Source: Craspedostauros australis
Lineage: Eukaryota
Direction: 5' to 3'
NCBI GenBank assembly: GCA_030167865.1
Contig: JALAGF010002232.1
Location: forward strand, 1 to 46,802
DNA length: 46,802 bases
Shown here: one piece after another, positions 12,186 to 44,253 of the stretch
Numbering within the stretch: position 1 is the first letter of the stretch
How the letters are laid out: each line of letters opens with the position of its first letter
Notes under the pieces: model-generated
What the model saw: only the letters and a program-made list of their open reading frames with translations
What the model was told of the DNA's origin: nothing
Database searches by the model: none
Translations under genes and position numbers: made by a program

Positions 12186-13907
12186 GTACGTATGCACCTC
12201 GTGGCTATTGGCATGTGTGGATTCAGATTGGCAAACCTCCAACATGGCGGTTTCGCTGCGGATGGTCGGACACTTGAAACGTATGCAAGGTCTGTTTCGC
12301 CGAGGAGCCGATGAGCTGCCATTGTCGCGGCACGTCACGGGTACAGCTGCGTCAGCGTTCAGACCGAAGGAGTTTTTTTGTGCACCGTGGTACCGTGTTC
12401 TTCATGTACACCAGTGTCTTCCTATGTGCTTTCACTTTTCTTTAACGGGGATGCTGTGTCTGGACGAAGGTGCCGATGGGCACACACGAACATGCCCAAG
12501 GAACCTACCATCTGCGCGAGCCAGGGAAGGTGCTTCGACCGTGGAAAAAAGGCCCTTGTGTGCGGTGCAGCCAATCCGTCCATGAGATATCTCTGTCCGG
12601 GTGGCTTTGGGACCAAAGCGCCTTCCACCCATGGACGCAAAAGGATCAGGTATCAACACCGCTACACATCCACCAGTATCCTTTTGCCATCCTCGGTCTC
12701 CGCTATCACCTCGTTACATACGGCTCTGTTCTCCTCCGTGGGATTGTGGCGCGCTGCCACGAGTACGAGTACGCATTGTTTCGTTGTTCCTCGGTGCCAA
12801 TCTCAAGAAACCGGATGAGACAAGGGTAGTGAACGACATCTCCATTTAACCCACGCGACAACGGCCGCCATAACCACACGTGGTGAGGAACACCAGATTG
12901 TCCAAGAGAGCAAACTGATAAAAACACCGAATTGACAAGTACTTATGCTATTGTCTCATTCCGCCATTGGGCCCACGAAACGTGTTCGCAATTGTGCTCC
13001 AAACCAGGTTGTGGATTGGAATAGTGTCCCACATCACACCTATGAAAATTCAGCTTTACCTGTGACGTTCCTCAAGATGTCAAACTGTGATGTGGTGCCG
13101 CCATTCCATCGGTATGTCCTCGGAATGTCTTCGGCGACACATTGATTTCTCTCCCTTGAGTGGTGTGTGGGAGTGACGAAGTCCTCTGCTCTGTGGTGGT
13201 TGTTGCCGTGTTAACGTCAGTCCCTCGTTCCAACTGCGAACGCCCTGCTTGTGCAATGTTCGTAGTTTCTCTACTATGGTTTCTTTGTGCGTGCAGACAT
13301 GAATACGAATGTCATTGGCAGGAATGGCGGTGAGTGTCTTGGTGTGTGATCGTTACGACCATACCTCCTAGCATCCTGTACGACTACTCGACTCAGTTTC
13401 CACGTTGTGGCAAATCCACGAACAGAGACAGCGCGAGATACGTCGTCAGTCAGGATCACACAATCGCAGGTATGATACACGCGTTGGAGCCTGCGCTGGT
13501 CTGCTCCGCTCCGCTTTGTACACGACAGTTCATCAGTGGAGGTTGGCACACAGCTGGCCGGTCAACCGCGGTCTTGCTTCGAACGCTGGCACAGCTCGTT
13601 GCCGTTTACGAGTACGCACTGAGCTTTTGTAGACGCCAACAGAGGGAGGTATTTCTGTTTGCGCAGCATTGGCAACGGGGCGACCGCGACAACGTGCGCA
13701 CGATACGAGTGGAAGTCTCATTCAGGCAAACTAACACGTGTGCTCGGCTTCTGCCGATTCTATCCTGCGTCCCGATCAATGCTCAGGCGCCGATCTTGGC
13801 TCATCCCATCCTGCCGTTCCTTGTCGACATAACCACATTCGATCAATCTCCAGAGGGAGAACACGTATAGCACGAACAGCAGCACTGACGCTATCACCAT
13901 CACAACC

Positions 13908-13989
13908 ATGGTCGTTGCCATCGCCACCACCTGCTCGACTTTCGATAGCCCCGCAATAAGCATGCCATTTCATCAACAGCAACAGTACC

Positions 13990-14021
<32 letters not shown>

Positions 14022-16358
14022 CAACAAGGACGACGCGATCAGCAGGCAGAGGCAGCTCAGAATCCGTCTCCCGCGCCATTCAGAATCGCAGCTGAAATGG
14101 TGAACACATCTCAACTGGGATCCTTTCCGTCTCAGCATGGCGCCGCAAGTGCAGGGGCCAACGCTTGGAACGATGCAAGCATGAATCTCAGCAACACCGA
14201 ACGTCCTGAGGGCATGTTCAGCACCCTCCAGCAGCACCATTGCCAACATCAACCTGCGCTGAACAATCAGTGGAAGCTTGGTCTGACACCAAATGCTGCA
14301 AATGGAGCAGATGCCATCGCCGAGGCTGGCTCCTTTGCGTCTTCTTGCCTTCCACCCTTGCATTCACTGACACTTCCCGCTTCATCTTCCTTCGCACTCG
14401 CAAACGGGCGCTCGCAGATTCAGACCCAGACGCAGATTCACACGCAGAGCCAAGCTCAGGCTCAGGGACTGGCTCATTCGCATTCTATTACCAACAGCAA
14501 CATGAATATGAATATGGACGCGAGAACGAGCATGGGCATGAGCAATGGGATACATTCAGCATTCGGTCTGAACCATAACCTTGCGTTGATGGATCATTTA
14601 TCATCATCTCTCGTACCATCCGCGATGGCCTCCTCGGGATCAACTGCCCATGCCGATCTTCCTTCTGTCATGTCAGCCTTAGCTCCCACTTCAGCTGCCA
14701 GCCTGGCCTACGGCGGCGACCCCAACGTGAGTTTGCATTTGGGGCAGGTCACGACATCCACCGATGCGGCGGATCTTGGTAGCGAGGCCAACAATAGCAT
14801 CGGCAACATCACCAACACCGAAAGCGCGACCAAGCAAGCTTTTGACTGGGTCCTCCGGTCCATCCAAGAGAATGATGCCCTCAACAATGCCAACAACAGC
14901 AGCAATAGAGGCAGGAACATGAGAAATTACAACCTCAACGGTCATAGCCAATACCATCGTCTGCAGCAGCATCGGCAGAAGCAAGATGATCGTGCCAACG
15001 GCTTGGTCATGGAAGACTTGGAGCCTTCGCCCATCGCATTCGACCGGAATGGTACAACAAAGCGCCATTCGCAGCCCAGTAGTTGTGCTGCCCGTGCCGC
15101 TCCTCCCCAGTTCGAGGCAACTACGCTTTGGGGCACTGCCTCATCAACACGACGCATTGGCTCCTCCGAGACTTCTGGTGATGTAACCGCTGTCGCAACG
15201 CCTGCGTCTATTCCATCCTTCTCCAACATCCGGACCGCAACGCCGCTCTTCGACATATCACAAGACGAACAGAAGGTCGCAGCAACCGTCTCAACGTGCT
15301 CTATACGATCAACCCAAGACCCTCCTTCCAGTGCCTTGGGTGCTGCCTTTGAGCTGGGCGACGGCAACAATACGCGCACTTTGGGTGACCCTGATGACAG
15401 CGGCTCCAACACGAAACGGCGCGCGTCCTTCTCATCAGCGCTTCCTCAGCTACGTCAAGACAGATCGAAGCGCCACAAGGTCTCATCCGCATCTCTCGGC
15501 CTTCCAGTTGACTTGATCCAAATGGAACCGCAGGGTTCGACCATATTCCCTCCGATGGCCGTGTCTCAGGCCGCAGGAGGAGACGGAGGACAAATACAAG
15601 GCCATGCCAGTATCACCTTTGATCTGGACATCGACCGTGACCCATGCAACGGTGTGTACGCACAAGCTCAAATTGTTGCAGGTCCTGTTGTGAGCAGCGA
15701 TTGTCTTGAGCAACACGGAGATCTCACTGGTATGGGGAGCGTCGACCAACCGAATGGTTCCGTCCAAATTGAAATCACTGAGAGCGATAAATCTCAGTTG
15801 CATGCACGATCGTGCGAGCAACCGCAACAGCAGCCAGATGCGCCTCCTCCATCGGCATCTTCATCGCGATCAAGATCTCGATCGAGGAAATCATCACGGT
15901 GCAAGCAAGAAGCAAGGTGGAATACGCGATATGCCGAGCTATGTCGATTCCGCGAGCAGCACGGCCATTGCTCTGTTCCTCACTGTTACGATGGCAACGT
16001 CCAGCTCGCGCAGTGGGTCAAGCGACAGCGCAATCAATACAAGCTCAAGGCAGATGGTCGCCATTCCACCCTCACTCCCGATCGAGAGAAGGCGTTGGAT
16101 TCCGTCGGCTTTGTGTGGGACAGCCACCAAGCGCTTTGGGATGAACGATTCCAAGATTTGCTTGCCTACAAGGAAGAGCATGGGCACTGCATCGTTCCGG
16201 CACGGCACAAGGCCAACCGTTGTCTAGCGGTGTGGGTGAAGTGCCAGCGGAGACAGTACAAGCTGCTGAAAGAACAGCAGCGCAGCAACATGAGCGCGGA
16301 GCGTATCCGTCGCTTGAACTCTGTTGGCTTTTCCTGGCACATCCGCAAGAGCATCTGA
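13908..16358 (+). CDS. Helicase-associated (HA) domain protein with two C-terminal HA repeats and a long Q/H/N/S-rich disordered N-terminus; putative DNA-binding regulator
   Basis: Two repeats: WNTRYAELCRFREQHGHCSVP..LAQWVKRQRNQY..REKALDSVGFVW and WDERFQDLLAYKEEHGHCIVP..LAVWVKCQRRQY..RIRRLNSVGFSW. No helicase motifs. The start may instead be the ATG at 13962 (MPFHQQQQ). Confidence 0.92.
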
Positions 16359-19553: not shown

Positions 19554-20444
19554 CGACAATCTCCACGACAAACCTCAAGTCAGCACGACACAAGGCAACA
19601 GCTGCGAACACGCACTTTCCGCATTCGGGCACGATCGAAAACGAGACAAGCACAGAACTTGTTGCCTCATTCGCGAGCAGCCAAAACACAAACAAAGCAC
19701 TCTGGAACAAACCACAACCAAACAAGGAAGGAAGGAACCTCAACAAGGAGAGGAGAAACAAGAGCGTCAGACAGCAACCAACCACCACAACAAACCAAGA
19801 AGGAGCAACAGCATCAACGACAGTCGTCACCGAGCCTATCAGAGCAGAGAGCACCAGAACAGGCATTGCAGCAGCAGGAGCAGGAGGGACACAAATCGGA
19901 AGTCTGAGCAGCACTGCGCCCAATCAAAACGAAACGGGACGCAGCGAAAGCACAGAAAACGACAACACTTCAACAAAAACGTCATTGCTGTTCTCATCCA
20001 AAATCCAACAACAGGACCATCGTCGTCATCACCAGCATCACCACAATCGTCGCGATCGCTACGAGCATCTGCAGCCACTTCAATTGACAAACCCTGGCTC
20101 ACCCTATCAGGACGCCGTATCAGCAGTCCGTTTCAAGCCCAAGTGTCAATTGACAGCGTCACCGACGTCAACAGAATCATCGGAAAGCGGAACAACGAAC
20201 ACAGCGGCGTCAGAGGCCAGAGTTCGGACCCGTTCCCTCCCAAACCACGAACTTCGGATCCGATAAACGCACCCACGCATACCAGGACATTAGCAGAACA
20301 AAAGGAAACAGCAGGAGCAGCAACAGAAGCACCACCAAGATCGGGAAGCAAAGGTGGGTGGGAAGCAACGCAGTGCACTTCAGCGCTCGCGACCACGATC
20401 ACGTTTCTGCTCACTCTCGCGTGCTTGTTCGCGACCACGCTCAC

Positions 20445-22956
20445 ATGCCCTTTCACACGCACCCACTTGCCTGCTCACCCACCCATCCGTCCACCCGTCT
20501 CTCCACTCACAATCAAACACGCACTCGCACACCCACGTTCCATCCACTCCGTACCTCAGGTCGTACCCCACACCATTCCACCACAACATCAACAGCATCA
20601 CCAAAATCACAAGACACGAGAATGCAAACCAACCCTCCAGGCACCAACAGTACCACCACCACTGACAGTAACAGCAACAGCAGCAACTCCGCCATGGCTG
20701 CGCTTCCGCTCTCGTCTCCACTCCGGCTCTTCGACGGCCACACCATGGCTGCCGCCCTCAACGCCGCGGCGCAACTGGCGCAACACCAGGACGATGGCTT
20801 CCACTGCCGCCAGCAACCTCACCATCCTCAGCGACAGCTCCAACGACAGCTCCAGCGACAACAGCGTCGTCAGCAACAACAACAACAACAACGAGCGAAC
20901 CACGAGGGACTTGGGCAGGCACGCATGGAGGCGAACACGAACAGCACGTCGCTCACCTCAAACGCACGTTTGGCGGCCCAGTCGAGTGACATTGTCGCGA
21001 ACCATGGCAGCGCTGCCGGCAGAACTGTCACCAATGACCAACGAACTTGCGACTCGGTCCGTATGCACGACCAAAATGAGACCCACGGTTCCGTGTTTCA
21101 AACACGATTGATTGCCGCCCAAGGCCCACGTGACACCACCACGTCCTTTGTACCATCTGCAACGACAGCTGCGCACACAAATGACGCAACCTCCATCGAA
21201 CAACGCAACAAAGACACAAACGCAGCAGCAGCAGTTTCAAACACACGACCCACCAAGAAACCTCGCACAAACGCAGCAGCAGCTTCCACGACTTCATTGC
21301 CACGGTCCGACATTCGCATCAACGTCGCAGATGCACATGCATCTGGCGCCAATGCAGCCGCAGGCGTAGCCACCATGACGAACGATACCAATGCCCATGC
21401 CAGCATCAGTGGCAACCTCAACGCCAACGTGAGCGTGAAGCCCCTGCGAGCATCGAAGTCCGCCAAAGCCACCTCCTCCAAGTCATTGCTGACCAGCAAG
21501 CAGCAGCCGCCAATGTCCACGCTGCGCCTGGACGACAGCTCGCCCCCCAACGCGAAGGCGGCTCGCGCCAACTTGCAGCATCCTGCTGTTTCTGCTGCTG
21601 CTGCTGCCGCCAATCGCAACCGAAGCAGCGCACACAGCAACCACAACAGTGAGGACGATGACGCTGCTGAGGGAGACTCCGTGGAGCGCAGAATCGCCAG
21701 GTCTCGAGAGAGGAACCGAGAGCACGCGCGCAAGACCAGGCTGCGGAAGAAGGCGCAGATGGAGGACCTGCAGCGCAAGGTCAAGGGGTTGCAGGCGGAG
21801 CGCAAGGTGCTGCAGCAGTCTCTGCAGGACTGCAGCATGGCTTCCATCCTCGTGGGCATGTCCAGCTGCTCTTCTTCGGCCAGGCGCGCCTCTGAGCCTC
21901 ATTCATCGCCGCAGCCGCTGCAGCAGCCGAACCAACGCCAGCACCCATCCAAGTCGCCGTCCTCTCCGCAGACGGACCGCCACCGCAGCGACGCCGCCCA
22001 GGCCCTGGCGTCCTGCATGACCGCACCATCCCAGGCCGCTGCTGACGCCAACTACGGCATCGATCGGCACCGCTACATCACGGGCGACAAGGCCGACGGC
22101 AATTGCGACGAGGTCGGCAAGCAGGACATGATCTCGAGCCTGCTCGTGGACGCCACCCAATCCGAGGCCTTGGGCATGACGGCGCAGGACGAGATGACCG
22201 CGTGGCTCATCTCGGGCAAGCGCAAGCGCTTCGTCTCCGGGGATTGGAGCGACCCCACGCACCCAGCTCCCGTGTCCGACGACGGCGCCAGCAAGAAACC
22301 CAGCGTGGTGTCGCCCTCGGCATCGCCGCAGCTCACGCACTCCACCCCACCACCGCACATGCAGCAGCTGGCGCATGCCCCGGAACCGCTGCGCATCAAA
22401 ATCGACGGGGAGATGACCTCCATCGGCGGGGAGGGCACGCACATCAACTGGAAGAGCGGGGTCTACACGGATCGCAACGGCAGCAAGCGTCGGCTCACGC
22501 AAGACCAGCTCCAGTCCTTGCGGTAAGTGTCATCGTTCGGCGTTTCCTGTTGTGCTGTGATATGTTCTGTGCTGTGCTGTGCTCTGCCCCCTTTCCAAGC
22601 ACTGCTTACATGTTTCGCCCATATCTCACGAATGTGCTCCTTCCACCATCCATGCCTTCAATTGCCCTGCCCTGCCATCCAACGACTACAGCCGAGAACG
22701 CAACCGAATGCACGCCAAGATGACCCGCGATCGCAAGAAGTCATTCATCCAAACCATGGAACGCACCATCCACGAGCTCCAGTCCACCAACCGCCGCATG
22801 AAGGACGTCCTGCAAAGAGTCACGGTCCATCACTTCCATTCCGCCACTGTGCTGCCAGGCATTGCACCGGCCACCAACGGCGACGACGATGCGGCGGATG
22901 AGCATGATCACCACCACGGCATCGACGACGATTCCGAGGACCATGCTCCACACTGA
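20445..22956 (+). CDS. Transcription factor with two bZIP domains, 2 exons (20445 or 20622-22522, 22692-22956)
   Basis: bZIP1: RIARSRERNREHARKTRLRKKAQMEDLQRKVKGLQAERKVL. Intron 22523-22691 (CG|GTAAGT...TACAG|C) restores bZIP2: QLQSLRRERNRMHAKMTRDRKKSFIQTMERTIHELQSTNRRMKDVL. Start uncertain (in-frame ATGs at 20445 and 20622). Confidence 0.92.
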
Positions 22957-25647: not shown

Positions 25648-27093
25648 ATGTTTGCCAACACCAAGTACGCCGTCAAAGTGGCGGAGCAATTCGCGGCGCA
25701 GCAGCGCGCCAAGGAGCTCGTGAGAGACGGCAGGTCCGACATCGCTGTCATCAACAAGACGGGCCCAGCATCAAAGCGCGGTGCCCGCAACAATGGAAGG
25801 CGGGGACGAGGATTCATGCAGAAATCCTTCAGCATGCGATCCATCTCGTGCAGCACCACCATCAGCACCAACTCGGCTTCCACCTGGAGCGCCGAGAATA
25901 GCCTTTCCAAAGGCATCAGCAATCGCAGCAGCCACAGCCAAGGCAGCGGCATGCGACACGGCATCGGCATCGAATTTGAGACCGGCAACGATGCTGGCCA
26001 TGGACACGCTCTCGGCACCAAACGCGGTCGCAGAACGCTCCTCACCGACACACCACAGCGATCCTTCGATGACGACGAGGAAGTGGAGGAGGGCGACGAC
26101 TCCCAACTATCGGGAGCGCACACGACGCATGGCAGCAAACCAACTGCCTCCATCACGGTTTCCGAAACGGCAAGATCAGAGGACACGCCCATCACATCGC
26201 TGGAGCATTCTGCGACGGGTCTGTGGCCGCGTCGCACATCGGCATTGTCGCCGCCACCCATGAGGCCTGCCAACGCCCAGCAGAGGAAGCAGCAGCGCGT
26301 CGATGTGGCCCTCAGCAAGATCGAGGACGCCGTGGAGCAACAGGAAGCCCAGCAGACGAAGATTGCCAGCTGCATTGACTCGCACGTCAAGCTGGCCAAA
26401 TGTCGCTACGATCACTCCACGGGCAACACCGTCGGTAAGTCGCGATCAATCGATCCATCCACGTGCTGCTGCCATTACGCGCTTTAGTATGCATGTCGCG
26501 CTGGCAGTACTGATGTAGAATACAATATTCCACTCAAGCAGGATCTCATCGTCTCCGTATCTGCGACGACTCACACGAACAACCTCTTGCATCCACCCAC
26601 GCCCAACTCTTTCCCCTACGCGCCAACCGCATCGCCACACTTTCAACTTCACACAGCCGCTTGCTGCAACGCTCACATCATCCGCGAACTGCAACGCGAC
26701 TACAAGCTCATCGACCGCGTCCTCGACGGGCTCGCCCAGCTGGAAATCAACCTCGCACAGGGCTTTGTCAACACGAAACTGATGGAGGCTTCGATCGCCG
26801 AGATCGTCAACATGAAACCAAACATGAAGCCGCTAGAGCCCGTCTGCGACGAGGATTGGATCCAGCTGCTGCTAAGCTCCGACTCCCTCGTACCGCAACG
26901 CAGCAAGACCTCGGCGCGGCGGCGATCCGGCGGCTTCGATCATGACGCTGGATCCAGCGCCTACAGCAGCTACACGAACGCCACCAACCGAAGCAAAGGC
27001 ACCAGCAGCACCGCCAGCAGTCATCGCGGCAGTGGCGCGGAATCAGGCGTCGTCGCCAAGACCGTTGATGTCGTTGTCCCACTGAAGCAGTAG
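25648..27093 (+). CDS. Paralog 1 of an uncharacterised family (conserved N-terminal helix, Ser-rich linker, Snf7/ESCRT-III-like helical domain), ~407 aa, exons 25648-26434 and 26657-27093
   Basis: N-terminus MFANTKYAVKVAEQFAAQQRAKELVRDGRSDI is shared with the other two paralogs. Phase-1 intron 26435-26656 (G|GTAAGT...ACAG|CC) joins ORF 25648..26487 to ORF 26587..27093 in frame. The gene model is firm; the ESCRT-III resemblance is inference. Confidence 0.85.
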
Positions 27094-28205
27094 AGCAGAG
27101 TAGAGTAGAGAGGCGTGTCTGGTGTTGGATTACAACGATGGGACTTGGGGAATATTACTACCATGCATCCGACAGCGTTTTGTGGCGCACGAGTATAGTA
27201 TAATACATACATATGATAGATAGAAGAGACACGAGGAAGCGAGTAACGCCATACTCCTTCGCGATCATTTTAGAAATTTTAAGTGATTTTGTTGACGAAA
27301 GAGCCTATATTCCCAAGATACTTGCGGTTTCGTCAATCCCCTACGACGGACGGACCAGGCAACCAGAGCCGACCGAGACGACACAACGTGGTGCCGGCCC
27401 AGCAGTAGCACCACAGCGACAACACATGACAGCAACAACAGAGAGACCAAACAAACGACAGAAAAAATCAATTGTAACTATCTGATTTACAAACCATACT
27501 ATCACACAGCATCATCATCGTCTGGAACTGCCCTTCGGCTCAAAGCCGGGTAGAGACTGGCGAGGACGCTGTTGTTTCAACAATTTTGGCCTTCGTCCCT
27601 CCATTTTTGCTTGTTGGAAGTCCAAGGGGAAATTCGATTCTTGCATGAAGTGACAGATCGCGACGCGCAGAAGTACGAGACTTGCCCACTTTGTGGCACA
27701 CAAAGAGGGAAGGCAACAGTGTCCCAACAGTGTCGTGTGAGAGGAATCGGATGGTGCGTGTCTGGTGCAAGTACAAGTGCGACTGTACTTGCCAATCACT
27801 CCAGACTCTACTTGCACGCCAACTTCGTGCGAGCGTTCTGCCAGAAGACGACGCTCGCGTGATGCAGACCTGCATGCACAGAAGATTTTTGTCATGTGTC
27901 GTGTCTCTTGGGCAGATTAGAATCGTTGGCCATTGGAGGATCAGACCAAACACGGCGTGACTTGACTTGACTGCAAACACGGCCGATGGAGCCTTCATGG
28001 CCTCACGAACTGAACCCATCATCTGTTGTTCTGCTCGTGCTCGAAGCAGAGCAAACTTGGCGGAACCAGCCGATCCAACCCAGCAAACTCGGGTCTCCAC
28101 AATTGCTTGCGCAAGACGTTGCACTGACAGGGATATTGACTTGCTATTCCGGCATTGTAAGCGCAGGCAGCGGCGGTGGGCGAAGTTCACTGTGCTCTAT
28201 GTAAA

Positions 28206-28231
28206 AGGCAGAGGCAGAGGCAGAGGCAGAG
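28206..28231. repeat. (AGGCAG)n hexamer repeat
   Basis: aggcagaggcagaggcagaggcagag. Confidence 0.85.
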
Positions 28232-29002
28232 ACGGAGGCACAAGATACAGGCCAAGATAGCCGCATGAAACCGAAAGCCGACATCGTCCATCCCATCAGA
28301 GCATTCCCCAACAGCAGCAGATCCAAGAGACCTGCACATGTCACAACCATTGGACGTACAGCAAGAGATGTCCCTCGCGCCCATTCGCCCATTAAAAGAA
28401 TAAAATGAAAGAAGGAAGGAGAGAGAGAGAGCGCGCACCACCTGAGCTCAGCCGACCATATCGGGCCGCAACAACACATCGCATCACATCACGCCACAAG
28501 CCATCCGGCAGCAGGCAGAGCAGGCAGTCGACAAGGTAAGAGCGATTTGAGGAAGCAAATAGTGCCATTTAAATATGGTGCTACCACAGCAATCACCAGC
28601 AGACTGGAACGAGCATTCCAAGTACGGTGAAGCCAAAGGCACCGGCAAATTGGTCTACGATTGTTGGACAAACACATGGTCGAGCTGCTGGCCTCTGCAG
28701 GGTCCAAACGACCTTCCACATACACACCCAATCAAGCTACCAATTGGAAACTTCGATGCAACAGAAAAGGCGTGCTCATCGCTGTGGCATCAACCAAGCA
28801 ACACACGGCTGGCAGGAGTGCAAGCTGCGACGACGATACCGAGTTTGCTCAGACGACGCTGGCACCCTCTGTGGCAACCAAGAGAACAAGTTCTCGCGAT
28901 AGTATGGCAACCAGGTTCGATTTCGTGCGCAGTCCAGGAGAAGCGAGGAGGACCATGTGTGTATGCAATGGGCCGCGCTGATTCCACAAAGCACAGAGCA
29001 AT

Positions 29003-29644
29003 ATGAACGACGTTAGTCTTGAATTTCACTTTAATTCAATGTCCCATCGTGCACTAACCCTTCGTTCCTACTTTTGCATTCTGAAGCATCATCAGCAAGC
29101 CCACCAGTACAGTCGCACCTTGCTCTCTTCACTCATGCAAAGCGTACCAAACGGCGAGAATACCGAACAAGCTACGGAACCGACTTCGGTCTGGACTGAC
29201 GATCGCCTCGAATCCTTGATGGCTGAGTTCGATCAGTTCAGTGAGAGCGATTGGAATCTATCCGATTCGGACTCTGCTGCTTCAGAACTCCATGCATCTA
29301 GGAGGCCAGCTCCTGAGGTTATGATCTATGTCAACGAGGTGACACAGTTCGATGTGAAGTTTGGACGGGGAACTGGGCCCGTTCACCATGCAGGCAACCA
29401 ATTCTTGCTCCAGGCGGTGAGACGGCACATGGTGGAGTACCAGCAGTGCAGCAGATGCGACAAGACAGCTCTCGCACGGAGTCTTGTCCGGCTGGTGGAG
29501 AGGCGCGGTGGTCGCTTCGTCTCTCTCGATGCTTTGATGGGGGCCTGGTATGTTGTAAGCCCACGGGCTGCCCGGGAGAAGGTATCGTCGACCTTTCGCC
29601 AGCTCATTCGTCAGGCTCGGAGGGCTGGTCACGATTCGGAATAA
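29003..29644 (+). CDS. DUF6824 domain protein (family expanded in diatoms); probable intron 29012-29086
   Basis: Signature FDVKFGRG...HHAGNQF....Y.....DK..LA..LV..V...GGRFV......WYVV....AREKVSSTFR. ATGAACGAC|GTTAGT, branch point CACTAAC (29052-29058), a pyrimidine tract and in-frame AG acceptors at 29086 and 29095 suggest a 3-codon first coding exon. Confidence 0.88.
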   Translation: MNDVSLEFHFNSMSHRALTLRSYFCILKHHQQAHQYSRTLLSSLMQSVPNGENTEQATEPTSVWTDDRLESLMAEFDQFSESDWNLSDSDSAASELHASRRPAPEVMIYVNEVTQFDVKFGRGTGPVHHAGNQFLLQAVRRHMVEYQQCSRCDKTALARSLVRLVERRGGRFVSLDALMGAWYVVSPRAAREKVSSTFRQLIRQARRAGHDSE

Positions 29645-31245
29645 TCGTAGCGAGATGCCGATTTGGACAGAGCAAGAGTGCACAAGAGAGTGGTTTGGAG
29701 TAGCATCGTATCATCGCAGCTGTAGTAGCAATCGTAATCGTAATCATAATACAATCTATTGCAATACATTAGAATGCATCATACGAATGCTGCCCACGGC
29801 GACGAAACCGGTAGGCGTCACGATCATGATGCTGACGGCCACCACATTCAATGTTGACAGGCGTTGGAGATCGAGAAAATGAACCGCACCATCAAACTCG
29901 CAGGCAGCCTGGCGGATGGATCGCGAACGCGCCATCGCGTTGAATACAACGTGAACGCACAAGCACACTCGCGCCATATTCGGACCATATTTGTATAATA
30001 CTTGGAAGCACGCTTGTATCCGAACGCGCAAGCACGGCTGCCCATGGAACTGCCGCGAACGGAGCGAGCTGCAGACATCGTGTCATCGCCATCGTACGAG
30101 TATCGTCATCATCATCCCGATCTCCACTGTTGTATTGGAATGGTGAGCCACCAGTATACCATCTGCAGGAACCATCCAGACGTTACCCTTTTCTTGCAAG
30201 AGTGTCCTTGCTTGCTTCCGTGCATGTTGCGGGGGTTCTTGTGGGAGCCTGCATACTTTGGACACATCCGAATCAGGCATCGGCGAAGTTGACAGCCAGA
30301 CCGAACACCAAACGTGCTTGGCATCACAACATCGCTCTGGTCGTTGTTTGCTCTGTTTTGTGGCCATCTTCCATCTCCCACCACACCGTCTTGCTCGTCT
30401 GGCTCCCACCATTTTGCTGTAAACAACCTTGGAACATCGATGATGTTGATCACGTCCATTCGTGATGATGCTTTGTCTGCGGCATCGGTTGTAGCAGCGA
30501 CAGCAGCAGCAGTAGACGCGCAGTCTGAAACAGGAGGAGAGCGAAAGAAAGCGGCGTGAGCAGAATCACGAAGCCGTCACCCACTACTTGATCGGCGCAT
30601 CCACTGGATTCATTCTTGGCAACGTTCGTTTCTGCTCATGATTGTACGTTGCATTATATGCACTAGAATGATGCAGTCTCTGGAAGGGGAAAGGTTGCCG
30701 AACTCTTCGGTTTGCGTTCCTGACAGTCGCAGATAGCTATGACGGCGGCGGCGGCAGAAACGGTGCGTGATGAAGATAGTGTACGCGCTGCTGGGTACGC
30801 AAGGGAGTCTACCCTCCTCTACTCAGCCATGCACCTGCGTACGACGACCGCCACTACTGTACAGACTGTTGGAGCACTTGGTGGTGTATACTGTTTCTAC
30901 TTAAATTTTACATGTGCAGGAATATGCATCGAAAATTGGACATGTCGCCAAGCCCTTTTTGTCCACCCTCCAACAGTCGCTGCGATGCTTGATGGCGACG
31001 GCAATGCTAGAGTATTGGTGCAGCAAGTATGACATGCATGTTGGCTGGGTCCATCGTTCCCTGACTTGGATGGACTGCTTGCGACTGCTCCTCGTCCAGC
31101 GCGATCCTCTCGGACTCTTCGCTTTTCTTCTTTTGTCTCGTTCTGCGGATGACGATGCCTGCTTGCGTGACCTCGATAACGGCAGAGGACGACTGCTAAC
31201 CAGAGCGCAACCTCCGCATGCGAAGAAGCGTCACATCCTGGCAAA

Positions 31246-32662
31246 TCAGGCTTGGGGAATCATGAGGGAGGCACTCGATGCCGACATCCGCTTCTCCTTC
31301 TCCAAGGCCTCGGTCAATTCCCGCAGCAGATCCTCATCCTTGAAGCTCCGGCGCGAGTTGTTGGAGCTTCTGCGGCTGCCCGCGGGCGATGCCGCGCCCG
31401 CGTTGACGACCTCTTCGATGGCCTTATCCATGGAGGAGAGGTCGAAGGCGTCGACGTATCCCAGCCGCAGGTTCTCCTCGATCTGGTGCAGGCCGTTCAT
31501 GAGATGCACGATGTTCTGGCGATCCTGTTGCAGACTCTTGACCGCCTGCATGCTGAGGAGGGCGCCTGCACGTATGGTGGAAGTGAATATGTCGTTGCGA
31601 AGAGGGGGTGAGGTAGGTGGGTAGGTAGGTAGATGGGGACGTTGATACGAATAGCGCGGAGAGTACCAGGTGTGTGTGTATTGCGAATGCAAGGCAATGT
31701 CGAAGATGTGAAGGTTGGCATAGGGCAGAGAAGAGGACGAAAGACGTGGAGGTTGTGGGTTCGGTGAGTACGTGTCTGGGTTCGAGGTCCAGGTTGCTTG
31801 GAAGCAGTCCAGGAGAAGGCAAGCCATAGAGCACCCATCTGTGGATCAACTCGCCACAACGTGCAAGAGTGATATTTTCGATGATACCAGCAGGCAGAGC
31901 AATGAATCAAATAGATTCATGTCGCATCCGTCCAACATGTGTACATGTCATCATTCTGTGGCATGCTTGGGCAACACCTTCACAACTTTGACAAAAATGA
32001 ATGGACCAGGACGAGCCAAAACAGCACAAAGCAAAGATCCCAAAGATGTGCCTCTTGGTCCACCCTGCGCGATGATGTCCACGCGATGCGTCAGCGCAGA
32101 TTCGACGCCGCTGCCTTCACTTACCCATGCTGTTGCTGGAGTACTGCAAGCGAGCCTTGGCCATCTCAGTGTGATGGCGGATGGCGTCCTCGATACGTTC
32201 TTTCTTGTTGGTTTGCGTGTCCATGGCGTCCGCGATCCTTGCCTCGGCCTTTGCGATGGCTTCGGCTTGGCGTCCCTTGAAGTCGAGGGCGGTGCTCGCG
32301 CTCGGACGATGTGCCGTGGTGCTTTGCGACGAGCTGGGGAGGCTGTCGGAGTCCGCCACGGAGCTGGAGGAATGGTCCCTGTTGGACACGCTGGTGTCAC
32401 TGTTGCGGTGCAGATGCGATTCCAGGGGCTTGCTGTGCTTCTTGCTGGTTGGAGAGAAGGGAGCGGAGAGCGATGCAGACTTCGCAGTTGAATCCGTCGA
32501 GGATGATCGAGAAGTTATGCTGGAATTCTTCTTTCTGGCAACAGGACGGCAGTTGTTCCGCAGCTCGATGTTTGAGTGTCCCTTCATGGCGATCTCCTTG
32601 GCGCGTTGCTGCGCCGCGACGCGTTCCGCGATCTTGAATGCTTGGTTTTGGGTGGAAAACAT
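31246..32662 (-). CDS. Paralog 2 of the same family, ~285 aa, exons 32662-32125 and 31565-31246
   Basis: N-terminus MFSTQNQAFKIAERVAAQQRAKEIAMKGHSNIEL. Phase-1 intron 32124-31566 (ATGG|GTAAGT...TGCAG|GC) gives ...AKARLQYSSNSMG-ALLSMQAVKSLQQD..., the same intron position as in paralogs 1 and 3. Confidence 0.85.
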
Positions 32663-35600
32663 CTTGGCTCAATGGTGTGGTGTGCTGGCTCGGCTCTCAA
32701 CTGGTGTGCTTCTGGTTCTGGTCTTTGCGTCTCTGCTGATCCTTTTTGTTTGGCCCGGTTGTCGATTTGTGAGGCAATGTGAGAGGATGACACGATCAAG
32801 GAACGTTGGTGGCTGGGTCTGGGATCGCGGATGAGGTGGTGGTGGATCCGTGCGGAACGAGGAGCTTTCTCATGTGTGTTGCTTTCCATTGTGGTATCGC
32901 ATCGCCGGTGTTGCGTCACACGCCCCGAAGCTGGTAGTCGATTCTTCTCGATGCGAATTGTAGTCGTGTTCGCAGTTGTCGAGCTTTGTGTCCGCTGTCT
33001 CGATGGGAGTTTTTGACACAGATGCGAATTGCGAATGTGTGGAGATTCGTTGTGGATTCGAATGTCTTCAACACTCTGCTTGGGATTTTCGATTTCCTCA
33101 GTGACATTTCTGGTAGTGTGGTTTTGCGTGCTGTTGTTGCAAAGAACAGTGCGCTCACAACTATTCGTTGGTTGGCGTCACAAGTTCCCAACCACAAATG
33201 CGAAGCGCAAGGGATCCATTAAATGAAACAACCAACTGCCCATAAGCGGGCGACACGCCGTCGTGCACGTCAGTACCTTTTTCTTGTCTGACGACATTCC
33301 GGTGTTGCAGAGAGGTTTCAGACACACGTACGAGAAGACAACAACTCCAGCTTGTGACTCACATGGCGAAGGCGCGATTAGTCGCGCACAGGCCCAAAGC
33401 GTGCAACATGACTCATTGCAGCGTTAAGGACATCTTCGGAAGACTGGCAGATTCACTGTGGATTCACTACGACATGTTGAGGCTTCCGATAGCGCGCTTC
33501 TTCATTTCTACCTCACGTTAGGAGATTCGTCGTCTTGGAATTGCCTCCCGCGTGTCGAGTCACGTGTGCAGTTTCGTGACGCTCCCCAAGACCAACAAGG
33601 CACGATCACCAGAAACGATCGTGAAAATCATGTTCAACTGGAATAGAATCTCCATGAATCATCTCCCTCTGTGGTGCCGCACCTCCAACAAGTCCAGGTA
33701 TTCCAACCGTGCTTGTACTTAAACTAATGTCACGCGCTGTTCTTGGAATGCGGTTCGCAGCTGCCTTTCGTTCCCACTGTACCAGTTGCCAGCACAGCCC
33801 GTTCGGCAGAAGAGTACAAATATCGAAAGGGTCGTGGGTCATGTTCCCTGTCGCGAAGCAATCAAATTCAATACTGTGGCCGCCTGCCATGTTGAAGGCT
33901 CAGGACATGAGCCTTGTAACTCATTCTGGCGACAACTGCTTTTCGTGCGTTTCAGTCATCATGTTTACGACTACACGTGCATCTCTTCTATGGATCGATG
34001 TCAACAGGACAACGCGATCTGGAGCGTCGTATTCCGGGCTGATTTACGAGCTGTGTGCTGCGTGCTGCGTGCTGAAGTGACGCAGCATGGAGTGATACCA
34101 TCATTCATTCCTCCATGTGAAGATCTGTCGTGTGTGTTCCGAGGTATGCTTGTGCGAGCATGGTCCAATACTCGCCAAACGACGAAGTGGACCTCCCAAG
34201 AATCGCCACAGCGTGACCACCAAGGCAGTCCTTGCAGGCAATCAAAACATCGAAATCAAATCCTCATCGAACGTATGATTATATTCTATTATTACATTAC
34301 ACCACATTACATTATGTGAGGTAAGCTAGTACGTCACCGTGTCCCACTTCCACTTCCACACCTCTCTTTTTCTGTGTTGTCATCTATTCTATCGTGTCCT
34401 TGTCGCGTCGCCCTTCCGCTTCGTCGTTCCTGTGAGTGGCTGAAAGTTTCTTCGCTGCGAAGGGTTGCCAACCACCGACATGGGGAAGAGTGATGTGTTG
34501 GGAAGCTGCGAACACGGCTCTGACTGTTTGGTAGAATGGAATGTCTGTTTGCGAATATGTATCCCTATGTCAGTTTGCACTTTGTTTTTGTCAGTGTGTT
34601 TGTCGCTCACCAAACAGACTAACATGCACAACGTAACGTCCGCCTTCGTACGTCTGTTGCAAATCAGCACTCATCATTCTCACAAACTTGCGGAATCGGC
34701 TCTGTCCTTGGAAGATTCAGTCTTCAAGACGAAGCCGGATAGGGAGAGGCCGAAGCATCTTCCTAGATGGTTCTGTTGGATCCATCGCTGTTCACATAGG
34801 AAGCATGTCAAATGGGTGTTGTTGGCAAAGACACAAGTTGATGATTTGAGGTGGATACCGTGCGTGTGTTTGATCTGCGCTGTGCGGTTAAGGGACCTTT
34901 GCAATGGGGTGGACAACTGTGATGTCGCAGCAGGTACTGCCTCCTGACAAATCGTGCGTGTTGTTGGGATTTTGTCGTCGCCAAAGCCAATGAATGCAAT
35001 GTTGGAGTTGAGTTGCACCTTGCTCTTCGTGGCGAAACGAGTCATGGAGCCCAAGCATAAAGGGCGCAGACATGAACACACAAGATTACAATGTCACCAT
35101 GACGATGCGATCATTGCAATACGATCATGTCAGGAGCAGCATGGATCCAATCCACGAACAAATCCACAACAAGGACGGAGTAGTCAAAGATATATATATA
35201 TAGAGAGAAGCTTCTAGACCCCTTGAGCAGTCCTCGTTTCGCAGGTGTCGTTCAAGCGTCGTCCTCGTGGAGAGGGCATCTCGGCACGTTGCCACATGGA
35301 GAGACGATGTGAGAGGATTGGTTTTCTTCTCGCATGGCGTGTCACACATAATGCCGGCCTGTCGTCAACGAAGCCCTCTCTGGTTGTTGGCGTTATCGGG
35401 GTGTTCGAAGGAGCAGAAGTGTCGCTGGCAACGTGCTCTTCGTGAGTTTTTGAATACTGGCAACCACGATCGGTGATGTTTGGTCTCTGTGTCGGAAGCG
35501 TGGCTTGTTGGTGGCGATTATTTCCTGTTCGTTCTTGCCGCAACTGTTTGTTTCCGTTGTTTCGCAGCTTGTTGCTCTCCGCACTTGTGCATTGCTTGCG

Positions 35601-36488
35601 CGGGCTTTTTCGCTTGTGAGCGCAGTGGAAAGTGCAACGTCGTACCAGACATGGTAGTGGGACGAAACATTTAATAAGCAAGCTCACAGACGTCATAGTT
35701 GGCCTTCTTCGTGATAAAAAGCAAAGAGCCCTGCATAAGTATGAACTGGGCAGCCGCTGTTCCATCGGAAGCGACACGGCTACGGACAAGAGTCCATTTC
35801 ATCGCGGTGACGTAGAAATGTCGGTGGCGGTACTGAGAAGGAGACATGCACTCACGGACAAATGAAGGAGAGAACAAGCAGGCGGTAACGACTGCGCCAG
35901 CGATTGCCAGTAGAAGTACTCCTGCACAATCACACAACCAGCCCAAAGTCTGGTTCGCGACAACGCCTCCACAAACTCACAACGAAAGAAGACGAGGCGA
36001 AATACAGCGCAACGCACGAGACGTGGCTGCGCGAAGCGATACAGCAGACAGGCGCGCAGAGAGTGAGAAATCAGCGACAAACGAAAGGGAAAACGATGCA
36101 GGAGAAGCCGCTCCAAGGGCAAAAAAGCATGCGCAAATCATGCCCTGTCGTCGTTCTCCTCCTCGCCTCGTTGGTTCGAAGGCGATAATTTCCAACGCAA
36201 ACCACACCGCTCTGCCAATCAGCACGCTGACACAACACCATTGGCAACAACTTTTCGCAACTTCGAATTCAGCAACGGCAGCAGAGGCAACCAATCAACC
36301 CGGACATCCAACCATCGCCGGCACACTTGTCTTGGCGCAACCGCAACAGCACAAAACCGATTGCTGATCCACGCAGACCAAACCTCACATCATAGGCCCA
36401 ACTTCTTTCATACAATAGAACACAATACGAGAAAACACAATTGAATCAACGCTTGTTCATCAACAAAGCATTTCGACAGATACCCACG

Positions 36489-37955
36489 ATGTTTGCCAAC
36501 CAGACGCTGGCCATCCGACAGGCGGAGCAGTTCGCCATGCAGCAGAGAGCGAGGGACATCGCCCTCAAGGGCCACTCCGACATCGAGCTGCTGCGCTCAC
36601 CTCGCAACATGGCCCCCGCCAGCAGCAGCAGAGGCAAGTCGCCCAGCGGCTTCAAGGGTGGCCGCCGCAAGCTGCGAAGGAATGACCTCTTTGGCGGCAG
36701 CTCCCATTCACACTCGCTCTCCAGCAGGCAGCTGCACTCGCAGGCCAGCGACAAGGGGAGCCTAGCCAGCCCATCGCGTTCCAAGAGCGGCCAGGATACG
36801 GGAAGCGGCACTCCTACCACCACCGCAACGTCCGCATCCGCCACTCCCAGCACTGTCAAGCGCAAGCTCAAGGCATCCGTCGCGGCCTTCCAGAACCTCA
36901 TCCGCGGGCCTCCTCTGGCCGCCTCCAACCACAGCCACAATCACAATCACAAACTGGGCAACAGGCGCACCGATCACAGCAATGACAATGACGATGACTC
37001 ATCAGTGGGCAGCCAATCCTTCTTCTCTGACACACCACAACAGCAGCAGCAGCAGCAGCAACAACAACAGTTCCAATTCCCGCGCGGCCCCGGCATGCTC
37101 ATCTCCACCACAGTCCGATCGTTCATCGGTTCGTCGTCACGCTCCATCCTCAGCTCCAACGATTCCATCGCCCACACGGATGTCGATTGCGACAACCATC
37201 ATTACGTCACCAAAACAGAAAAACTGGAAGAAGAGCTGGAGCAGCAGACCCGGACGCTTGAAGAATACCGCAAACGCATCATGCATCATGTGCAGCTGGC
37301 ACATGCCCGCACCACCAATTCGACCAGCACGATAGGTAAGCGGACTCCACTATGCTCGTTCGTTGGTTCGTTCGTTGGTGCGCTTGTTCGATTGCTCATG
37401 TTTGTTGATATCAGCCTGGCGGGCGTCTCCTCGATCGGCTGCAGCTTGCTTGCTTCTATCATTGAGCCAACGAGAGTTCGAACGAAAGCAGAGAAGCAGT
37501 TCATCAATTCACCACCACTGTCGTCCTTCACAAACAATGACGGCTCACAATCTCTTCCTTCCATCACTTCCAACTGCAACCAACTCCACCGTCACCACAC
37601 GCCGCCATCATCCATCGCAGGCGTCTGCCTCAGCCTGCGCACCGTCCACCAGGTGCAACGCGAGTACCTCAACACGAAGCAGATGATCGCCGCCTTCCAG
37701 GAACTGCAATCCACCCACCACCATCTGTCCACCAGGAGCATCGATAAATCCATCCAGGAACTGCACGCAATCCAGCAGAGCAAGAGGATGAAGACGCCGA
37801 AACGCGAGCATGACGACGAATACCTCCTCAACGAGCTGCAGCGCAAACTCAAGGAACACGATGGCGACGTCCAAGCCATCTGCAACAGTTACATTCCGAC
37901 ATCCAGCAGGCCGCAGCGCAAGCACAACAAACCAAAACAGCAGCAACAGCGATAG
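36489..37955 (+). CDS. Paralog 3 of the same family, ~393 aa spliced (exons 36489-37335, 37621-37955); the intron is stop-free and in frame
   Basis: N-terminus MFANQTLAIRQAEQFAMQQRARDIALKGHSDIEL. Phase-1 intron 37336-37620 (ATAG|GTAAGC...TCGCAG|GC) gives ...LAHARTTNSTSTIG-VCLSLRTVHQVQREY..., which is colinear with the paralogs only when spliced. Confidence 0.85.
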   Translation: MFANQTLAIRQAEQFAMQQRARDIALKGHSDIELLRSPRNMAPASSSRGKSPSGFKGGRRKLRRNDLFGGSSHSHSLSSRQLHSQASDKGSLASPSRSKSGQDTGSGTPTTTATSASATPSTVKRKLKASVAAFQNLIRGPPLAASNHSHNHNHKLGNRRTDHSNDNDDDSSVGSQSFFSDTPQQQQQQQQQQQFQFPRGPGMLISTTVRSFIGSSSRSILSSNDSIAHTDVDCDNHHYVTKTEKLEEELEQQTRTLEEYRKRIMHHVQLAHARTTNSTSTIGKRTPLCSFVGSFVGALVRLLMFVDISLAGVSSIGCSLLASIIEPTRVRTKAEKQFINSPPLSSFTNNDGSQSLPSITSNCNQLHRHHTPPSSIAGVCLSLRTVHQVQREYLNTKQMIAAFQELQSTHHHLSTRSIDKSIQELHAIQQSKRMKTPKREHDDEYLLNELQRKLKEHDGDVQAICNSYIPTSSRPQRKHNKPKQQQQR

Positions 37956-42000: not shown

Positions 42001-42464
42001 CCACACCTCCAACGCACCAAAGCAGAACAAAAGCACGTCGAGTCTCCAATACCTGGTTTTGCGCTGATGGCCGAGGGCGTTGTTTCATTCCATCCCATCC
42101 GAGCACGTCTGACAGCGCATGGTGGGTCGATGCAACGACTCGTATGTTCTTGGCACAACTCCCCACCCTGGTGCTGCCGCTCCAGCAACCACATCGACAG
42201 CGAGTGAAACGAGAACAGCAACATGCCGCAGAAAACGACAAGAAAAGAAACCTAAAAACAACGACAAATGTGACAAGAGAGGCGACAACAAAGAGCAGTC
42301 AAAGCACGACGACTCTTTTTCTGGTACCGCACCACACATCCGAGCGCGTCACGATCAATTCCTCAATCAGCACACGAAGTTTGCTCGCCGTGGCCTGAAC
42401 CGGGTTCTTCGGTCCGCACCGCAGGCTCCTCAGTTCTTTTCTCATAAAAGAATCAATCAAACTG

Positions 42465-44253
42465 ATGACAATCCAAATCTCCTCCATCAACATGAATGTC
42501 AAAGCACAACTTTCAGCAACAGCAGATGGCAACGCCATGCCATCAAAGACAGCAAAACTTCCTGAGCCCATGGCTATCCCGAAGCTACACGAAGCACTTG
42601 ACCGCTGCGCTGTCGACTTTGACGAGATCAACTACCCGTTCCCGTACGTCTTGCACAAGATGCTCAGCGAAGTGGAACGGGTCGGTCTGGGACACATCGT
42701 GTCATGGCAACCAAGCGGCAAGTCCTTTCGAGTCCACCAACCTCGCGTCTTCACCGACAACGTGATGAGTAGATTCTTCCGGGCTCAGACCAAATTCAAG
42801 TCATTCCAACGGCAGCTGCACATGTACAAGTTCCGCAGGATCTTGGAAGGCTCCGACAAGGGTGCATGTAAGTCCCTGTGTGCGCATGTGTATTGGTATG
42901 TTCGCAGACTTCCGGCTTGTCAGACAATCACGCAAACGACCACGCAAACAAAAAACGACAAAAAAGCAGATGGAGACTTGTCAACGTCGGCGTGGAGATG
43001 GATAAGGCAAGGAAGCCATCCCCGTCATATGGATGAAATGCAGCAACCGATTTACGTCTAGGTCAGTCGTAGATTGTCCATCGCTTTCGCCAACCTTCAC
43101 CCATCCCAATCATCCACATGGTCCTCTCACAACTTCGCATGCCAACACGTCAACATCTTAACATCTCGCTGTGTGCTTCCGCCTATCAATTCCATTCCAT
43201 CCCGGTACCCGCATCAACTCACCTCATGTCGCCAATTCTATGCTTTGGGCTATCATAGACATGCACATACTGTTCGTGCGAGCGACACCGAAGGCGTGTT
43301 TGCAGATGAAGCGGCTGCCCAAGCCCAAAGCCAAGTCAAAGTCAAAACTGAAGGCATTGACGGCAACTGCGGAGGCGATGAGCACGATCTCTTCTCCGCA
43401 ACAGTTCATCGACAAGGAAAGCAAGAGTGGCGCATGGCCGTCAACGTCGACGTCGTCATCGTTGTCACTCTCATCGCATGCGCACGGCAGCAATCAGACA
43501 TCAATCCTTGATGTTATGGCGAGGTTCCAATTCCCCTCGGCGCCTTTCGTTTCTCCCATGGCTCATCACAAGTCTGCAGGAGGGTACCAAGAGAGTGTCT
43601 CTTCGCCGAGGACACCCGTCGGCTCCCCAGCTGTTGAAGATGCCTCAATGTCGCAAGGCATCCGAACCCGCGATAGTATTGGCCCATCGCCGACCACTAA
43701 CCTGAACGAACTGATCCTTTCCATAGACCCAAGCACTTTGCTGCGAGGATTTAATACTCCTTTTCCACAGAAGATCAGCGTCACCTCAGAGACGCAATCG
43801 GCATCGGCATTGACATCGAAGAGTCATACCACTGCATGTGTGGCTGCACCGCCGGTTGCGACTGGCACCTCGGATGAAGCTCGTGATGCGGCAACAAGCG
43901 CCACCAGCTTCAGTAGTGCCAACCCGTGCGTCACAGGTATTCACTCTGACCACCCATGCGCACCTGACGTCGACGACAAGATCGATTTCTCTGGAGCAAT
44001 CCCGCTGACGCACGGAGTTTGCAACGGAAGCCCCGCTCTTGGTGAAGAATCAAGGACGGGTATCTCCAGACACGTCACACCCTGCCGGGGGCAGAGGGAG
44101 CACACGGACCCATTCGTCGACCAGTTGGGAGGGTCAAGAGACTTGAGTGACCCATTCATCAACCAGCTTGACGCATACGTCAAGGCAGTCACGAGGGAAA
44201 GTTTTGATGGAAATTTGTACTTCTTCGCTGGGAAGCCGTTCTTCCCTGTGTAA
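42465..44253 (+). CDS. Heat shock transcription factor (HSF DNA-binding domain), ~465 aa, exons 42465-42867 and 43259-44253
   Basis: FPYVLHKML...IVSWQPSGKSFRVH....F...VMSRFF..QTKFKSFQRQLHMYKFRRI..G.DKGA. Intron 42868-43258 (T|GTAAGT...CATAG|AC) completes the domain as GA-YMHILFVRATPKACLQMKR. Confidence 0.93.

Follow-up and report, generated by a model that had tools for sequence, protein, structure and literature searches.

A contig of the diatom Craspedostauros australis (assembly GCA_030167865.1, contig JALAGF010002232.1), whose first 46,802 nucleotides (nt) are the stretch of DNA analysed here and called the window below, contains three similar, unannotated genes within 12 kb, and it is not obvious from their open reading frames (ORFs) what they encode. 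An earlier interpretation made from the letters alone (the sequence-only reading) had described them as a lineage-specific family of intron-split proteins derived from ESCRT-III (Snf7-type) subunits. The locus therefore raises three questions: are these three genes real and correctly joined across their introns, how far does the family extend, and does its resemblance to ESCRT-III reflect common descent or convergence? The best reading, which we hold with moderate confidence, is that the genes encode an orphan adaptor of modular build whose fold resembles that of ESCRT-III, without deciding where this fold came from.

Three spliced paralogues with a common intron

Based on the stop-to-stop ORF map and the sequences of the junctions, three paralogous two-exon genes (P1, P2, and P3) are located at 25648-37955 on the plus, minus, and plus strands, respectively. 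P1 starts with an ATG at 25648, and its first exon (25648-26434, plus strand) encodes an N-terminal motif (25648-25755), a Ser/Arg/Gly-rich linker and helix alpha1 up to the turn of a hairpin; after a phase-1 intron of 222 nt (26435-26656, GTAAGT..CAG), the second exon (26657-27093) encodes helix alpha2, a short helix, an acidic DED-W-I..LL helix and, in its remainder, a hydrophobic-hydrophobic-Pro motif and a Ser-rich tail followed by the stop codon, giving a spliced protein of 407 amino acids (aa). On the minus strand, exon 1 of P2 (32662-32125, ATG at 32662) encodes the N-terminal motif, a Ser-rich linker and helix alpha1, and is separated by a phase-1 intron of 559 nt (32124-31566, GTAAGT..CAG) from exon 2 (31565-31246), which encodes helix alpha2, a short helix and an acidic DEDLL..L helix and ends in the stop codon of a protein of 286 aa. 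P3, again on the plus strand, comprises exon 1 (36489-37335, ATG at 36489) with the N-terminal motif, a long linker including poly-Gln and helix alpha1, a phase-1 intron of 285 nt (37336-37620, GTAAGC..CAG), and exon 2 (37621-37955) with helix alpha2, a short helix, an acidic DDEYLL..L helix, a basic/Gln-containing tail and the stop codon; its spliced product has 393 aa. In all three genes the split codon comes directly after the S/T-x-x-T/M-V/I turn of the helical hairpin, and the intron sites agree to within one residue (the loop of P1 has one extra residue). The phase-1 intron that the sequence-only reading had placed at the same position in each gene thus holds to within that one residue, and the spliced core strings that it quoted for P1, P2, and P3 are identical in the new translations.

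Because the P3 intron is in frame and free of stop codons, the P3 ORF reads straight through it. Its retention would add 95 codons at the hairpin tip, namely about 40 mostly hydrophobic residues and a Ser/Pro-rich stretch, while retention leads to a stop after two codons in P2 and after 17 in P1. The poly-Gln run in the P3 linker (about 37029-37080) was treated as a repeat in read mapping.

Relatives of these proteins were sought in two ways. A word-index search with exon 1 of P1 retrieved a single MMETSP transcript (P0001), and an exhaustive hmmsearch with an exon-1 profile against 1.84 billion representatives detected 15 proteins at E <= 1e-3, 14 of which are credible; the remaining one, P0013, is a Ser-rich fish protein and was rejected as a false positive. 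The whole domain is uninterrupted in five of these proteins (P0007, P0010, P0011, P0012, and P0014). Six others (P0001, P0002, P0003, P0005, P0006, and P0009) are ORFs that stop shortly past the same junction, P0004 and P0008 are short N-terminal fragments, and P0015 could not be clearly sorted. The truncated ORFs are unspliced transcripts or ORF calls on genomic contigs, and since they end just past the same junction, the intron site appears to be shared across organisms. P0002 and P0009 read G-K at the junction, like P1-P3 when these are read through, because a GGTAAG donor yields G-K. It is possible that intron retention is common in the family.

These relatives allow an independent examination of the gene models. 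The three window proteins are 50-56% identical to each other in the 36-aa N-terminal block, and their identity drops to 19-25% in helix alpha1 and to 19-29% in exon 2. We built three hidden Markov models (HMMs) from external members only, leaving out the window's own proteins, and ran them on the complete set of 1118 six-frame pieces from the window. Exactly three exon-1 pieces and three exon-2 pieces were matched: the N-terminal block HMM gave E-values of 5.6e-11, 2.1e-12, and 9.4e-11 for P1, P2, and P3, respectively, the alpha1 HMM 1.1e-15, 7.9e-8, and 3.2e-6, and the exon-2 HMM 4.5e-8, 3.4e-8, and 7.6e-5, with the best other piece at E 0.015. Hence the proposal of three genes in plus, minus, plus order with a common layout is borne out both by the gene models and by profiles of foreign origin, and the same HMMs found no fourth copy of the family among the pieces of the window. 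Furthermore, the five uninterrupted proteins, together with P0016 (a Cylindrotheca closterium protein described below), align without gaps across the predicted junction, the exon-2 pieces of P1 and P2 directly extend their exon-1 pieces along these homologues in joint alignments, again gap-free, and the 95 codons of the P3 intron have a counterpart in no homologue in two family alignments. This colinearity of uninterrupted homologues over the junctions, combined with the splice signals, supports the splice models, and the joint alignments imply that the intron site is common to several organisms. Judged from such comparative sequence evidence, P1-P3 are three real spliced protein-coding paralogues with a conserved intron.

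Transcript data bear on this conclusion from the other side. One public run, which matches the window at >=99% and is available to us as contigs only (that it is RNA is our guess), contains no contig that crosses any of the three splice junctions. In the neighbouring DUF6824 gene, one contig of the same run joins 28532 to 29084 across an intron, which shows that the run contains transcripts of this organism; it has no bearing on the expression of P1-P3 either way. Two of its contigs cover 30994-31290, that is, the last codons of P2 and downstream sequence. In addition, P0001, the sole transcript of a close relative (of P1), is unspliced at the shared site, and splicing may accordingly be inefficient or give rise to truncated isoforms. 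Both observations would suit the view that P1-P3 are non-functional, either decaying duplicates or chance ORFs linked by imagined introns. We consider this scarcely credible, because all six exons are open and are recognised by profiles built from members in other organisms, 13 columns of the N-terminal motif are invariant over seven sequences, the splice sites are canonical (GTAAG..CAG) and all in the same phase, and uninterrupted homologues exist.

Distribution of the family

A further search added P0016, a protein of Cylindrotheca closterium (CAJ1956779.1; UniRef A0AAD2FY78) annotated as 'unnamed protein product', which is the only family member that carries an organism name. All family clusters consist of one or two sequences each and come from ENA, Logan, JGI, or MMETSP. 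As far as these sequences tell, the family is rare and so far found only in diatom-type sequence, and the suggested restriction to one lineage stands. P0016 is a true family member that shares the N-terminal motif, the hairpin, and the C-terminal motifs with P1-P3; unlike them, it carries two modules in one chain of 398 aa with very short linkers. The same arrangement of two complete, divergent modules in tandem, each with N-terminal motif, hairpin, and C-terminal motifs, is present in P0012. A tree of the exon-1 block resolves only P1 with P0001 (91/79), a group of the first modules of P0012 and P0016, a group of their second modules, and P0006 with P0009, and does not separate the successive duplications that gave P1, P2, and P3.

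Several other searches returned nothing of use. A word-index search with the whole P3 ORF scored none of 8000 candidates, probably because poly-Gln and Ser-rich words swamped it; look-ups in the ESM Atlas with P0001 and with residues 40-175 of P0010 gave no usable match; and scans of metagenome loci with the family alignment and with P0002 gave pattern matches, none of which was confirmed by tblastn. In the literature on ESCRT-III or tektin in diatoms, judged without full texts, we found no publication on such a family. It is best described as a family without a Pfam model that is new among helical-hairpin, ESCRT-III-like domains.

Protein architecture and predicted fold

Members of the family have a tripartite layout consisting of an N-terminal block, a variable linker, and a helical C-terminal domain. 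The conserved N-terminal block of P1-P3 (36 aa) contains a nearly invariant helix of about 33 residues (M-F-x-x..A-x-K-x-A-E-Q-F-A-A-Q-Q-R-A-K-E-I-A-x-K-G-x-S-x-I). It is followed by a disordered linker rich in Ser and Thr, which varies widely in length and carries basic clusters (93-196 aa and 27-40% Ser plus Thr in P1-P3), and by a C-terminal domain of about 125 residues, in which a hairpin built from helices of about 50 and 36 residues precedes two short helices. The second of these is an acidic amphipathic helix of the form [DE]-x-x-L-[LIV]-x-x-L and is modelled with high confidence. Neither a signal peptide nor a membrane segment is evident in the translations of P1-P3, and Pfam reveals no enzyme domain or other known domain in the six window pieces or the 12 homologues. 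After the acidic helix, a hydrophobic-hydrophobic-Pro motif occurs in 11 of the 11 complete modules (for example L-F-P, I-F-P, L-I-P, L-V-P, M-I-P, or Y-I-P), and a second C-terminal motif ending in (S/P)-P-(F/I/L) is found in P0010 and in both modules of P0012 and P0016. For the N-terminal block, the IQ motif, the PP1-docking motif, and the SxIP motif, compared by eye, were poor fits and were dismissed.

AlphaFold2 was run with family alignments on two uninterrupted homologues, P0011 (model 1) and P0010 (model 2). The P0011 model (predicted local distance difference test score, pLDDT, 80; predicted template modelling score, pTM, 0.62) has helices at residues 2-17, 71-120, 124-159, 168-175, and 187-196, with residues 18-70 disordered, and the P0010 model (pLDDT 84, pTM 0.67) has helices at residues 4-25, 43-93, 97-132, 138-149, and 161-169. 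In both, a hairpin of 50-51 plus 36 residues is predicted with pLDDT >90 and makes a three-residue turn on the S/N..G motif, and alpha2 is separated from the acidic C-terminal helix by a single helix of 8-12 residues. The models of the two homologues therefore show the helical hairpin turning at the S/N..G motif that had been predicted from the sequence. A prediction of a two-copy complex of P0010 residues 40-175 scored 0.01 in a run without controls, and speaks neither for nor against self-association.

Comparison with ESCRT-III

The ESCRT-III/Snf7 superfamily (PF03357; CHMP4/Snf7, CHMP3, IST1, CdvB, and PspA/Vipp1) is marked by an alpha1-alpha2 hairpin of about 70 Å, and the long hairpin modelled here has its tight turn in the same register. 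The family might be a true ESCRT-III derivative, descended from a Snf7/CHMP4-type subunit in which alpha3-alpha4 and the basic face disappeared while an N-terminal extension was added. Such a protein would co-polymerise with, cap, or regulate canonical ESCRT-III at membranes, and its acidic C-terminal helix would be an autoinhibitory or MIT-binding (MIM-like) element. We regard this as a serious possibility that falls well short of being probable.

When the P0011 model was compared with the PDB by Foldseek, members of the ESCRT-III superfamily, including CdvB2, IST1-CHMP1B, Snf7, and Loki CHMP4-7, occupied ranks 1-9 with probabilities of 0.91-0.99 and made up 22 of the 40 rows among the matches listed. 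For the P0010 model, however, they made up only 7 of the 42 rows among the matches listed, and the top match was translin; moreover, the best Foldseek E-value was 0.19, and none reached 0.001. In an unbiased VIA search of 48,161 representatives, ESCRT-III proteins accounted for 14 (P0011) and 15 (P0010) of the best 50 matches, and in a second-look alignment of the P0010 Foldseek candidates for 28 of the 50 listed, with Snf7 at the top (Z 9.9). The hairpins of Snf7, Shrub, CHMP4B, and Loki CHMP4-7 superpose on the models with a root-mean-square deviation (rmsd) of 0.7-1.4 Å over 76-81 residues at 16-23% identity, those of Snf7 over 79-81 residues; on the P0011 model, the Snf7 core (5fd9) reaches 0.7 Å over 80 residues (20% identity, Z 9.8) and Loki CHMP4-7 0.9 Å over 78 residues (23% identity). 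Closed ESCRT-III cores can be aligned including the last, acidic helix, as seen for CHMP3 (3frt_A; 116 residues, rmsd 3.5, Z 9.2), Ist1 (3ggy_A; 118 residues, rmsd 3.3, Z 8.9), and CdvB (9s9j; 110-111 residues, rmsd 2.8-3.0, Z 8.1-8.8). The VIA scores of Z 8-10 nonetheless tie with those of CNOT3 and of BAR/F-BAR domains, and they lie below about 13, in what the tool treats as the grey zone for helical folds. In the models, then, the ESCRT-III-like geometry is real. The structure search that had been suggested as a check on the ESCRT-III assignment gave a divided answer: ESCRT-III proteins are prominent among the matches, whereas no E-value falls below 0.19 and generic helical proteins score as well.

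Sequence comparison did not bear the relationship out. The Pfam search for Snf7 (PF03357) or PspA_IM30, likewise suggested beforehand, turned out negative, with no row for either at E <= 10 in 18 sequences (six unspliced pieces of the window and 12 homologues). With a four-sequence profile, the top four matches among PDB sequences were yeast Snf7, gapless over alpha1-alpha2 at E 0.034. This is only about four-fold ahead of unrelated coiled coils, and among Snf7 proteins the matches were confined to yeast constructs. Snf7 was not listed when an 18-row profile or a cleaner 15-row profile was used against the PDB, where Tektin-1 came to the top instead. An hhalign comparison of the family domain (17 rows including spliced P1-P3) with 39 archaeal CdvB proteins gave a probability of 0.7-1.7% (P 0.012-0.08, against 0.35-0.9 for a reversed control), and hmmsearch of the family domain against the same 39 CdvB proteins from Thermoproteota found nothing; this is a test of low power, because these CdvB proteins score only weakly against Snf7 in their own right (29-59 bits).

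Several features expected of ESCRT-III subunits are also missing or altered. ESCRT-III proteins combine a basic N-terminal hairpin with an acidic C-terminal half, and this basic-hairpin pattern was not found in the net charges of P1, P2, and P3, which are +1, +1, and -2 for alpha1, -1, 0, and +1 for alpha2, and -4, -2, and 0 for the tail. A basic face on alpha1 is therefore absent. The consensus of the MIM1 motif is [DE]xxLxxRLxxL[KR]; its core, [DE]xxLxxRL, fits 3 of the 11 complete modules (P0010 and the first modules of P0012 and P0016), which favours a relationship, whereas P1-P3 have L or E at the position of the Arg, leaving the core incomplete in all three. Unlike ESCRT-III proteins, the family has an alpha1 of about 50 residues that is not basic, one helix of 8-12 residues where alpha3-alpha4 would be, an additional invariant N-terminal helix with the long disordered linker behind it, no Pfam match, and unstable profile matches. 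The N-terminal helix of P1-P3 is only weakly amphipathic (hydrophobic moment 0.33-0.45) and has a negative mean hydrophobicity, which also argues against the ESCRT-III derivation. Of the earlier proposal that the family derives from ESCRT-III, therefore, the hairpin geometry and the presence of ESCRT-III among the best structural matches stand; a Pfam match, a stable profile match, and a significant structural score did not emerge. ESCRT-III descent and a role in membrane remodelling are unproven, and the hairpin may reflect common origin or convergence.

If the derivation were nevertheless true, one could imagine a diatom-specific minimal ESCRT-III, in which a Snf7/CHMP4-type subunit has been reduced to the hairpin and an autoinhibitory acidic helix and equipped with an invariant N-terminal docking helix and a phospho-regulated linker, and has been duplicated into a local set of three genes and fused in tandem in Cylindrotheca. 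Its products would assemble into hetero-oligomers and, at membranes peculiar to diatoms, would cap ESCRT-III polymers, nucleate them, or redirect them. We put this forward as a tentative and rather doubtful picture.

BAR-like and tektin-related alternatives

The structural scores also allow the family to be viewed as a generic antiparallel coiled-coil module for dimerisation, BAR-like or of another kind, whose likeness to ESCRT-III would be a convergence of long hairpins. The top unbiased matches were in fact CNOT3 (Z 10.4 and 9.9) and ACAP4 (Z 10.2 and 9.7), followed by APPL1, FCHO2, and arfaptin (Z 9.3-9.6), with 104-124 residues aligned, so that BAR/F-BAR domains and the N-terminal coiled coil of CNOT3 score equal to or slightly above ESCRT-III (Z 9.3-10.4 over this length); the tool itself cautions that helical folds commonly produce Z values below about 13. 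However, a BAR domain is a dimer built from three long helices with at least 200 residues, whereas the family domain has about 125 residues and two long helices, and the CNOT3 and BAR/F-BAR matches, larger three-helix dimers, share only 3-12% identity with it. Their rmsd values are mostly 2.7-4.9 Å (8.8 Å for ACAP4 with the P0010 model), compared with 0.7-2 Å for ESCRT-III hairpins, and no Pfam BAR match was found in the six window pieces or the 12 homologues. The Z scores of 9-10 with BAR domains represent partial overlap only, and a BAR-like module is unlikely.

The profile searches brought up a different candidate. With the 15-row profile, the top four PDB matches were Tektin-1 orthologues (E 3.5e-4 to 7e-3), about 100-fold ahead of the next unrelated match, and the 18-row profile also found Tektin-1 (E 0.0056). 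The hairpin might accordingly be a tektin-related fragment, corresponding to the helix 2A-loop-2B region of these filament proteins of ciliary microtubules: the L-A-x-A-R-L-E turn region of the family aligns to the A-H-T-R-L-E-T-R..R-P-N-V-E-L-C-R-D loop of tektin, and this best profile-to-sequence match is centred on the A-x-x-R-L-E turn. Against this, only Tektin-1 (418 aa) was matched and no other paralogue at E <= 10, while the same PDB entries should contain several tektin paralogues. The alignment requires two insertions or deletions, the turn of the family has 6-7 residues in this comparison and is devoid of the loop nonapeptide, and the family domain of about 125 aa is one third of a tektin, a four-helix protein of about 400 aa. 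Furthermore, the Pfam Tektin model (PF03148) matched none of the 12 homologues, no tektin occurred among the best 50 structural matches of either model, and the four-sequence profile did not list it. Pennate diatoms, Cylindrotheca among them, are not known to form flagella, which also counts against a tektin. We consider a tektin origin very unlikely. The Snf7 and Tektin-1 matches both shifted with the composition of the profile, and if the ESCRT-III link stays unproven, the family would serve as an example of how long helical hairpins mimic ESCRT-III in fold searches.

Proposed function

Returning to the orphan modular adaptor with an ESCRT-III-like fold, P1-P3 would be soluble, non-enzymatic proteins that may act as adaptors or scaffolds. 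The hairpin domain, shaped like a closed ESCRT-III core, would serve interaction or assembly, while the invariant N-terminal helix might dock onto a conserved partner and the linker could be a regulated spacer; a conserved Ser that lies three residues past a Lys in the N-terminal helix is a possible regulatory phosphosite. The three neighbours may form hetero-oligomers, because the two-module fusions in other species hint at cooperating modules, by an argument of the Rosetta-stone type.

Besides the missing junction-spanning contigs and the unspliced P0001 described above, several points weigh against this proposal. The structural matches would suit unrelated hairpin or BAR-type proteins just as well, and the predicted fold comes from models of homologues and not from the spliced proteins P1-P3 themselves. 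A profile of the N-terminal motif reached at best E 0.19 against PDB sequences, and the N-terminal helix resembles nothing solved.

Diatom genomes are rich in unannotated genes, and three such genes now constitute a defined family: its gene structure is modelled, its intron is conserved, three sequence motifs make it recognisable, and its fold is predicted with confidence. Of these features, the invariant N-terminal motif lends itself best to testing, since a conserved binding partner is to be expected for it. Should the link to ESCRT-III be true, the family would represent a rare, lineage-specific, and strongly reduced ESCRT-III paralogue in a photosynthetic stramenopile, and would open a way into the study of diatom membrane remodelling.

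Genomic surroundings

Near its left end, the window contains an assembly gap of 115 N at 155-269 and a single N at 649. Between P1 and P2, a DUF6824 gene (28508-29738, plus strand; Pfam E 5e-19) has a GT..AG intron of 551 nt (28533-29083), which is the one bridged by a contig of the public run. Other ORFs with Pfam domains encode an AlgH-like/DUF179 protein (5863-7968), a helicase-associated (HA) domain protein (13833-16358), a bZIP protein (20154-22526), and a protein with an HSF DNA-binding domain (42399-43061). This set of neighbouring domains (HSF, bZIP, HA, DUF6824, and AlgH-like) presumably fits a diatom genome.

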